Shown: positions 29,080 to 30,222 of the stretch, in pieces | How the letters are laid out: every line of letters starts with the position of its first letter | Position numbering within the stretch: the first letter of the stretch is position 1 | NCBI GenBank assembly: GCA_030615765.1 | Contig: JAUWYP010000002.1 | Span: forward strand, 82,480 to 146,479 | Reading direction: 5' to 3' | Length of the DNA stretch: 64,000 bases | Origin: Dehalococcoidia bacterium | GTDB taxonomy: Bacteria; Chloroflexota; Dehalococcoidia; SM23-28-2 | Position numbers and translations under genes: made by a program | Notes under the pieces: generated by a model | Databases searched by the model: none | Seen by the model: the letters and a program-made list of their open reading frames with translations, nothing else | What the model was told of the DNA's origin: nothing

Positions 29080-30222
29080 TCACGGCTGATCATCCGGCTC
29101 CGGCCTGTCTTCCGGCTTCTCGCCGGAAGCCTGCCGCACCACCTCGATCGTCTCGAGCGCACGCCGCTCTCGATCTGAGCGACTGCCTATGTGGAACCTC
29201 TCGAAAGCAGCAATCATCTCGCGCGGGTCGCCTTTCTCTGCCAGCACGACGGGCCAAAGGTGGAACAGAGAGATTCCCCGTCGGAGCGTTTCGTATTCGC
29301 CCCTTGCCACGAGATGTTGCCATCGGCGCACAACGACGTTCTCTCTTCCGACCAAGGCAGTGCTTAGATCCTCGATTGTCTCTATCCCCACATAACGCAA
29401 GTACTCAGCCAAACTGTCCACGAAATGCTCCTCTGGCTGTTTCAGCTCGGCGCCAGTCCACTCCGCTAGCTGCGCGTCGACTCGCCGCACGACGTCGTCT
29501 TCGGCGATGAACGCGGCCAGTGAGACCTTGTCCAGCAGCACCTCGCTTGGCTTCTCTGCTATGTCCCTCTTGACTTCTGACGCGTAGGCTGCAAGCTCGT
29601 CGCGGATCACCATGAACTGCTCGTCGCCCGTCTCCAACAGGCCTGCTAGACGCGAGAACCGCCGTCGTATCGCCCTTGGTATGCCTTGCGGGGCCTTGTA
29701 CCCCAAGTCGTGCTCGATTTCGGCCCAGGCGTGCTGCAGAATCGAGCGAACCTGAACCTCACAGGCGTACCCGCTGTAGGGCGCGTATTCGCGCAGGCGG
29801 GTGCGTTCCGCTGGGAGAGTACAAACGTAGTGAAGAGATAGGTAACCAAAGCGATCCGGATCGAGGGCTTTTCTCTTGTCGATTGACTGGTCAGCTATAA
29901 TACTGAACTCCCGCTCTATTATTGTCCCTATAGCGTCTACGTCATCGCCGAAATACGTGATGATCCGTATGCCCGCCAGATCCGTCACCTCACCGAGCGC
30001 CTCACACTGTCTTTCTTCTCTAGCGAGCTTCCCTTTCAGACTGTCCACAGTCTTGGCTCGACACGTAACGGAATGCACGCGAACCCCCTCAATGGCCAGA
30101 AGCTGCTCCACCAGATCTTTGCACCTTGTCGCAAACTGCGCGTAGATCGGCAGCTTGTCGCGATACTCCGCGACCATGCCTTCCACCCGGTCCTTACGCC
30201 GCTCTCCCGCTCGCTTAGCCAT
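29080..30222 (-). CDS. RelA/SpoT-domain (alarmone-synthetase-fold nucleotidyltransferase) protein with a ~180-aa C-terminal extension
   Basis: All synthetase-fold motifs are present: [54 protein letters not shown]. Lower GC than its neighbours (26/60 in the line at 29881-29940). Confidence 0.85.
   Translation of the reverse strand: [380 protein letters not shown]

Follow-up and report, generated by a model that had tools for sequence, protein, structure and literature searches.

Between ruvC and ruvA in the 64,000-nucleotide stretch of Dehalococcoidia DNA analyzed here (hereafter, the window) lies a stand-alone RelA/SpoT homologue (RSH) gene that encodes a protein of 380 amino acids (aa). 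On the minus strand, the order of genes is yebC, ruvC, the RSH gene, ruvA, and uvrB, with identities assigned by Pfam (Table 1). The first-pass annotation, made from the letters alone, had described this open reading frame (ORF) and proposed that it encodes a horizontally acquired, single-chain toxic small alarmone synthetase (toxSAS) of the CapRel kind. The ORF exists as described, the four motifs that were quoted are all present in its translation, and the gene is co-oriented with its neighbors, separated from ruvC by 37 nucleotides (nt; 30223-30259) and from ruvA by 87 nt (28993-29079). Neither gap accommodates any ORF on the same strand. Out-of-frame ORFs that overlap these genes, such as an Arg-rich one of 57 aa at 28989-29162, were set aside as typical artefacts of GC-rich DNA, and this region is not conserved in the allele at locus L084. 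The lower GC content that had been noted on first reading holds over the whole gene, with a GC content of 0.588 and a GC content at third codon positions (GC3) of 0.677, compared to 0.65-0.71 and 0.90-0.91 in yebC, ruvC, ruvA, and uvrB.

Table 1. Features at the RSH locus, with positions in the window, strand, and the basis of each assignment.
Feature	Position	Strand	Basis
RSH gene, stand-alone two-domain RelA/SpoT homologue, 380 aa	29080..30222	-	ORF with ATG start; Pfam PF04607; full-length homologues; AlphaFold2 model
Residues 1-45, variable long N-terminal helix	30088..30222	-	DSSP helix 2-44; pairwise identity 0.30; dN/dS 0.28-0.69 in the two closest allele pairs
Residues 46-180, catalytic SYNTH domain with family-specific DPDRFGY motif	29683..30087	-	RelQ alignment; invariant columns; Foldseek; dN/dS 0.12-0.13
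Residues 181-224, long linker helix with near-invariant motif	29551..29682	-	Helix 183-223; conservation; 132-nt tract identical to allele L101
Residues 225-345, acidic all-helical C-terminal domain, candidate sensor/regulatory domain	29188..29550	-	AlphaFold2 domain model; fold, Pfam, and profile searches; charge; dN/dS
Residues 346-380 plus stop, last helix and charged, poorly conserved tail	29080..29187	-	pLDDT 69 in last block; pairwise identity 0.17
Insert, roughly 1.2 kb, absent from closest relatives	29046..30270	-	blastn against empty-site loci L091, L093, L095; junction alignment
Left copy of imperfect direct repeat, CAGCGGCGGCAGG, inside ruvC 3' end	30274..30286	-	Junction alignment
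Right repeat copy, CAACGGCGGGACGGCAG, and decayed relic of old ruvC tail and stop, now non-coding between RSH gene and ruvA	29005..29045	-	Empty-site alignment
RSH leader: TAGAAT overlapping ruvC stop, then perfect 6+3+6 palindrome ATGTCT-GGG-AGACAT	30244..30262	-	Sequence conservation
ruvC, 3' end rebuilt by insertion	30260-30778	-	Pfam RuvC 1e-42
ruvA, directly downstream of RSH gene	28357-28992	-	Pfam RuvA_N, HHH_5, RuvA_C
yebC	30800-31555	-	Pfam
uvrB	26286-28304	-	Pfam
Promoter-like site 5' of yebC, TTGACC-18-TAGAAT with TG	31590..31619	-	Consensus match only

As judged from UvrB homologues, the host belongs to an uncultured but densely sampled lineage of Dehalococcoidia (Chloroflexota). 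A collection of 5.8 billion proteins contains 27 UvrB clusters that are 94-98% identical to that of the window, whereas the best relative of the RSH protein in the same collection reaches only 72%. In three independent sets of contigs, whose UvrB, RuvC, and RuvA are 96-98%, 91-95%, and 85-95% identical to those of the window, ruvC and ruvA are 12 nt apart with no gene between them. Homology to these empty-site loci, as detected by blastn, ends at 30271-30274 and restarts at 29045-29047, and the alignment of the junctions places the insertion point within the last roughly 30 nt of ruvC. The empty-site ruvC ends in …QELLEDSSG followed by the stop; in the window, ruvC instead continues past the left repeat with a new five-codon tail (AQLG and stop) that is largely supplied by the insert, the G that completes the Q codon lying in the repeat. 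The RSH gene was thus acquired by insertion into a formerly contiguous ruvC-ruvA junction, as had been suspected on first reading, and its absence from the closest relatives gives it the appearance of an accessory gene.

Over 41 nt, the displaced ruvC tail matches its empty-site counterpart at about 73% identity, as counted from the alignment, whereas the flanking coding DNA is 91-95% identical to the empty sites, with a rate of synonymous substitution (dS) of about 0.14-0.2. Because the relic is more diverged than its flanks, the insertion may predate the divergence from the empty-site relatives, although a sample of 41 nt makes this suggestive at most. In that case, either alleles with and without the insert would have existed side by side, or recombination between the repeats would have removed the gene.

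Relatives that carry the gene were surveyed at loci L081, L082/83, L084-87, L088/89, L099, L100, and L101. In all eight relatives with readable flanks (53-72% identity), the RSH gene lies between ruvC and ruvA, or beside whichever of the two the contig reaches; a relative of 48% identity sits outside this slot. The first-pass annotation had held that orthologues in this slot across the whole clade, with host-like composition, would speak against an acquired defense enzyme. Same-slot orthologues are indeed found in several Dehalococcoidia lineages, but they do not extend across the whole clade and never show host-like composition, the RSH GC3 being 0.64-0.72 in all eight alleles compared to 0.89-0.94 in the flanking genes, which were measured at five loci. 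Deeply diverged RSH alleles show no amelioration of GC3. This lasting low value could reflect either repeated exchange of alleles from an AT-richer pool or selection, for example, to limit expression.

The divergence of the RSH gene is also decoupled from that of the genes around it. At L084, RuvA and RuvC are 95% and 89% identical to those of the window and the RSH protein only 66%, while at L082 RuvA is 30% identical and the RSH protein 62%. In addition, the window and L101 share a stretch of 132 nt (residues 181-224) without a single difference (dS = 0), although the adjacent segments differ with dS of 0.39-0.58 and the proteins are otherwise 72% identical. This stretch is a gene-conversion tract, and the RSH alleles are mosaic and recombine.

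An AlphaFold2 model built from 118 sequences (predicted local distance difference test score, pLDDT, 93.8; predicted template modeling score, pTM, 0.83) resolves the protein into an N-terminal helix (residues 2-44), an alpha/beta SYNTH core, a 40-residue linker helix (residues 183-223), and a helical C-terminal domain (C-domain). The Pfam RelA_SpoT family (PF04607) matches residues 55-177 with an E value of 5e-19 and 69.1 bits against a cutoff of 27, and a Pfam scan found no HD, TGS, or ACT domain in the 380-aa protein, so the model and the scan bear out the description of a stand-alone RSH with a helical extension and without a hydrolase, TGS, or ACT domain. The catalytic residues R55, K57, K65, D81, R86, G126-Y127, H131, and E155/Q157/R159 align residue for residue with Bacillus subtilis RelQ (5F2V/5DEC), and the catalytic site is therefore intact. 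All of them are invariant in alignments of 39 and 118 sequences except K65 and H131, which are invariant in the former and at least 90% conserved in the latter. R55, K57, and K65 belong to the RxK motif, D81 and R86 to TDLAGxRI, G126-Y127 to DPDRFGY, and E155/Q157/R159 to ExQxR. By comparison with RelQ, we take these residues to be the phosphate-binding Arg and Lys residues, the Mg-binding Asp, the G-loop Tyr (Y127), and the ExQxR element of the active site.

In a Foldseek search with the full model, residues 1 to about 210 match RelQ and RelP (E 3e-9; TM-score 0.79-0.81, normalized to the target), and CapRel (7ZTB) appears at rank 40 through its catalytic part (E 1e-6). A family profile searched against PDB sequences likewise finds RelQ at 4.5e-21 and CapRel at 1.4e-4, the latter in the catalytic part alone; this search and one with the single protein gave strong matches to RelQ/RelP only, and Dpo4 at E 0.12 was taken as chance. 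The window protein is nevertheless only 24-27% identical to RelQ/RelP and scores 64.8 bits against the NCBIfam YjbM model (GTPPhKinYjbM equivalog), for which the cutoff is 320. PADLOC returned a single model, PDC-S33 (E 4.9e-15), over profile positions 50-175 of 349; full-length membership was rejected, as this match is limited to the shared catalytic core, and a literature search for PDC-S33 found no paper. Family-wide, the catalytic part has a mean net charge of -4 and so is itself mildly acidic.

When modeled alone, residues 222-380 fold into eight helices and two 3-residue strands (pLDDT 92.9, pTM 0.85). A Foldseek search with the C-domain gave no significant match in the PDB (best E 0.095, to an unrelated protein) or in BFVD, neither 7ZTB nor 9ERV being matched, and a Pfam scan of the domain stayed empty with the threshold relaxed to E<0.1. 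An exhaustive HMMER search with a C-domain profile recovered 1,027 representative proteins at E<=0.001. Among the matches listed, the C-domain lies at about residues 215-360 of proteins of 350-400 aa, or in shorter proteins. Of 11 such shorter proteins inspected, nine start within the catalytic core or the linker and the other two within the C-domain or just ahead of it, and they are therefore N-terminally truncated fragments of the fusion. In all matches inspected, the C-domain thus occurs only fused to this catalytic domain. Of the thousands of homologues in the database, the best 120 are almost all 354-400 aa long (two are shorter and probably truncated), with alignments that mostly span 84-100% of the query; since they share the full length, the C-terminal extension is a conserved feature of the family rather than a local accident.

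The C-domain is acidic, with a net charge of -8 and an isoelectric point of 4.96 in the window, and its charge is negative in 85% of family members. It is also the variable part of the protein, as would be expected of a sensor. Family-wide, its mean pairwise identity is 0.31 and that of the catalytic domain 0.60. Its ratio of nonsynonymous to synonymous substitution rates (dN/dS), taken from the two allele pairs with the least saturation, is 0.66-0.67, about five times that of the catalytic domain (0.12-0.13).

The family as a whole comprises about 1,000 clusters at 50% identity, spread over many bacterial phyla and some archaeal metagenome-assembled genomes. Its genomic contexts are unrelated across 80 GTDB genomes of many phyla: ruvC, ruvA, yebC, and uvrB are found within 6 kb of the gene in none of these 80 relatives, and clustering of the ORFs within 2 kb of the 80 loci revealed no conserved antitoxin or partner, with no neighbor family present at more than four loci. 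No flanking antitoxin gene is present in the window either, as had been noted on first reading. The RSH gene is AT-richer than its flanks at 78% of 73 family loci (mean difference -7 points, p 7.5e-10). Plasmid collections hold only two full-length copies, both on Bacillus megaplasmids; AAA ATPase and DUF4435 genes lie near one of the two. The family was not found in phage collections, where phages carry only short small alarmone synthetases (SASs).

In this Dehalococcoidia lineage, the yebC-ruvC-ruvA-uvrB stretch is a variable hotspot, with further slots on either side of the RSH gene. The slot between ruvA and uvrB is empty in the window (52 nt, 28305-28356). At L095-97, it holds AbiU (PADLOC 4.5e-41; Pfam AIPR; L095 5229-6914), at L084 (2608-3915) a type II-like methyltransferase fused to Mrr, and at L091 (6232-6990) and L093 (4606-5124) unknown ORFs, one of which has a weak match to EACC1 (E 0.0011). 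Upstream of yebC, both the window (31640-32692, plus strand) and L093 (1474-2523) carry a DUF6941 gene, a small ORF, and MazF/PemK; in the window, this cassette encodes DUF6941 (164 aa), a 78-aa ORF, and the PemK/MazF toxin at a GC content of 0.50-0.54. At L090 (9214-10328), DUF6941 and an 84-aa ORF are joined by a PIN toxin, at L095-97 (L095 2134-2858) DUF6941 and the small ORF occur without PemK, and at L091 methyltransferase and specificity genes of a restriction–modification system take the place of the cassette. From its gene content, the DUF6941 cassette looks like a tripartite toxin–antitoxin-like module with swappable toxins. The presence of AbiU, methyltransferase–Mrr, MazF/PemK, and restriction–modification genes nearby supports an accessory, defense-like local setting for the RSH gene.

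Taken together, we consider it about an even bet (a probability of roughly 0.5) that the RSH gene encodes a self-contained, sensor-gated, toxSAS-like SAS. The C-domain, probably together with the N-terminal helix, would hold the enzyme inactive until a trigger binds, conceivably a protein or nucleic acid that comes from a phage or is associated with damage. The activated enzyme would then move pyrophosphate from ATP onto the 3'-OH of a purine nucleotide, and growth arrest would follow. The yebC-ruvC-ruvA transcript would provide expression, possibly together with a leader element of the gene's own. Because the RelQ/RelP catalytic residues are shared, (p)ppGpp synthesis is the default chemistry; the mild acidity and RelQ-like nature of the catalytic domain point to (p)ppGpp as the most likely product, with (pp)pApp or tRNA modification as possible alternatives. 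The role would most likely be abortive-infection-type defense or stress arrest. The fast dN/dS of the C-domain, its low identity, and the tract that is identical in otherwise diverged alleles could represent the signature of an arms race.

Several observations weigh against a sensor-gated defense enzyme. The 113 nearest neighbors at the 80 family loci are mostly housekeeping or metabolic genes with few defense matches (Pfam, PADLOC), and we claim no family-wide enrichment in defense islands. The dN/dS of the C-domain stays below 1 and comes from two allele pairs, and the extreme GC3 of the genes on either side confounds comparisons of dS. The likely substrate is deduced solely from charge and similarity to RelQ. 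Finally, in L088 and L100, which are more distant alleles, the RSH stop overlaps ruvA by 4 nt, and such tight packing looks like long-term residence in the operon, which would also fit a physiological role.

Such a role could be that of a non-defense SAS tied to recombinational repair and co-transcribed with ruvC and ruvA, in which (p)ppGpp would rise upon induction of the ruv operon, or upon a DNA-damage cue at the C-domain, and ease conflicts between replication and transcription. The overlap with the ruvA start at L088 and L100 favors this explanation, as does the retention of the ruvC-ruvA slot in all eight relatives of 53-72% identity, although their RuvA is only 30-95% identical to that of the window. 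So do the position of the sole promoter-like site, upstream of yebC, with no convincing internal terminator in the yebC-ruvC-RSH-ruvA stretch, and the RelQ/RelP-like catalytic domain under purifying selection. In E. coli, elevated ppGpp reportedly suppresses the UV sensitivity of ruv mutants, a finding said to go back to McGlynn and Lloyd in 2000. We nevertheless regard a repair-linked enzyme as rather unlikely, given that the closest relatives lack the gene and have an intact ruvC-ruvA pair, that linkage to ruv is found in 0 of 80 other genomes, that the foreign composition lasts in all alleles, and that the C-domain diversifies quickly in mosaic alleles.

The closest described architecture is that of Pag1B/GRel from type I PANGU, a two-gene operon that includes an activating YejK-like nucleoid-associated protein, Pag1A. 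Pag1B consists of a toxSYNTH domain with G-loop residue Y129, a helical linker, and an acidic, "DNA-mimicking" C-domain, and remains an inactive tetramer until the YejK-like nucleoid protein binds, whereupon it makes pppGpp (bioRxiv 10.64898/2026.04.06.716658). Set side by side by description, the window protein shares with Pag1B the SYNTH domain, helical linker, and acidic C-domain, the G-loop Tyr at almost the same residue number (Y127), a catalytic domain that is not basic, and a patchy spread over many phyla. It could thus be a partner-activated effector of this type, whose acidic C-domain mimics DNA and is bound by a DNA-binding protein freed from damaged DNA. The partner would differ from a YejK-type nucleoid-associated protein: no YejK-like gene lies beside the window gene or its relatives, as a phmmer search with E. 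coli YejK gave no match at E<=1, either in the whole 64-kb window or within 6 kb at about 100 loci, when all ORFs of 120 aa or more were considered. Also, NA37 is not among the 25 Pfam families listed for the 113 nearest neighbors, of which at most one could match. The window gene is instead embedded between ruvC and ruvA, always directly upstream of ruvA in this clade and sometimes translationally coupled to it, so that RuvA itself could be the partner. The lack of ruvA linkage outside the clade means that RuvA cannot be the general partner, and we consider a PANGU-like effector distinctly unlikely. The specific version in which RuvA, in place of a YejK-type protein, reads the acidic DNA-mimic C-domain, and (p)ppGpp synthesis fires when RuvA is displaced from, or flooded by, damaged or phage-processed DNA, is more improbable still. 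If true, it would represent an alarmone switch gated by a repair protein.

Membership in the CapRel family, which had been proposed on first reading, was not supported by the comparison. CapRel is defined by a C-terminal pseudo-zinc-finger domain (a three-stranded antiparallel sheet plus helix) and a conserved YXXY neutralization motif (PMC9712102). Like CapRelSJ46 (7ZTB), the window protein is a single chain (about 370-380 aa) in which an N-terminal pyrophosphokinase precedes a more variable C terminus, it has no separate antitoxin, and it is encoded by an accessory, horizontally moving gene; in a CapRel-type fused toxin–antitoxin, the YXXY element would block the ATP site until a phage structural protein releases it, and tRNA CCA ends would be pyrophosphorylated. 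The structural match to 7ZTB is distant, however, and confined to the catalytic part, while the C-domain is all-helical and does not match the 7ZTB fold. Of 118 members, 28 have a YxxY somewhere in the C-terminal part, and the first Tyr (Y274) of the YLRY of the window falls in a column that is Tyr in only 13. The family profile prefers RelQ to CapRel by 17 orders of magnitude, and PADLOC gave the partial PDC-S33 match and no CapRel model. The catalytic domain also lacks the basic character expected for binding of tRNA, which makes tRNA a less likely substrate. We therefore judge a CapRel-type enzyme improbable, more so than a PANGU-like effector.

The bicistronic toxSAS modules (FaRel, FaRel2, PhRel, and PhRel2; PMC7229694) resemble the window gene in that accessory DNA encodes a SAS catalytic domain that may arrest growth, but no conserved adjacent antitoxin gene is found in the window or at the 80 related loci. 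An ordinary, merely longer housekeeping SAS of the RelQ/RelP type (SAS1/SAS2; 5DEC, 5DED, 5F2V, 6FGK, and 6EWZ) would account for the best structure and sequence matches among solved proteins, which cover residues about 40-212 and include the same catalytic residues. RelQ and RelP are single-domain proteins of about 200-230 aa, whereas the window protein has an extra N-terminal helix and a conserved C-terminal domain of 160 aa; its identity to them is low, its score lies far below the NCBIfam cutoff, and the gene is neither core nor restricted to Firmicutes. It is present or absent among near-identical genomes and has an atypical composition. A plain housekeeping enzyme, which the first-pass annotation had named as the dull alternative, is thus scarcely credible and effectively refuted by score, length, and non-core status. 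Dehalococcoidia have been reported to carry only long Rel (PMC3153485).

Fused or partner-gated toxic alarmone synthetases such as CapRel and PANGU Pag1B represent a young class of bacterial immune sensors. The large family described here shares their design logic, a conserved pyrophosphokinase with a fast-evolving C-terminal domain, in this case one that matches no solved fold. The Dehalococcoidia locus presents a clean natural experiment: occupied junctions and empty ones are found at one and the same evolutionary distance, the alleles are mosaic, and the adjacent slots hold AbiU, methyltransferase, and MazF genes. If the family is a sensor-gated effector, it would constitute a third regulatory solution for toxSAS enzymes and provide a handle on defense in an uncultured, environmentally important lineage. 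If it is repair-linked instead, the coupling of (p)ppGpp to recombinational repair would likewise be new.

With regard to expression, a yebC-ruvC-RSH-ruvA transcript likely starts at the promoter-like site upstream of yebC. The RSH leader elements are kept at L084 (about 665-690, where the hexamer is TATAAT) and L101 (about 60-85), and the three alleles that keep them differ by 28-34% in protein. This leader could be a candidate promoter and operator of the gene's own, or an mRNA hairpin. The palindrome is not conserved in L081, L082, or L088 and is therefore confined to the three closest alleles rather than being a feature of the family. Rfam and tRNA scans gave no match near the RSH gene; an RNase P RNA of class A (300 bits) at 12341-12715 on the minus strand is the sole Rfam match in the window, in which no tRNA genes were found.

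Flanking genes of related loci show further irregularities. The ruvA of L093 (3927-4562) is only 85% identical to that of the window, with a dS of 0.64 against 0.13-0.14 in its neighbors, though UvrB and RuvC of the same locus are 98% and 94% identical, which suggests a recombined allele at the hotspot. The uvrB of L081 (7327-9366) has a GC3 of 0.69, compared to 0.90-0.94 in its neighbors, and is 60% identical to that of the window, whereas the more distant L082 reaches 80%; it may represent a xenologous replacement. Many related Dehalococcoidia UvrB proteins (P0166, P0174, P0182, and others) are about 800 aa long and carry an N-terminal retropepsin-like aspartyl protease domain (PF13650/PF13975), and at L099 a separate retropepsin-like gene of 118 aa (2142-2498) lies 3' of ruvA.

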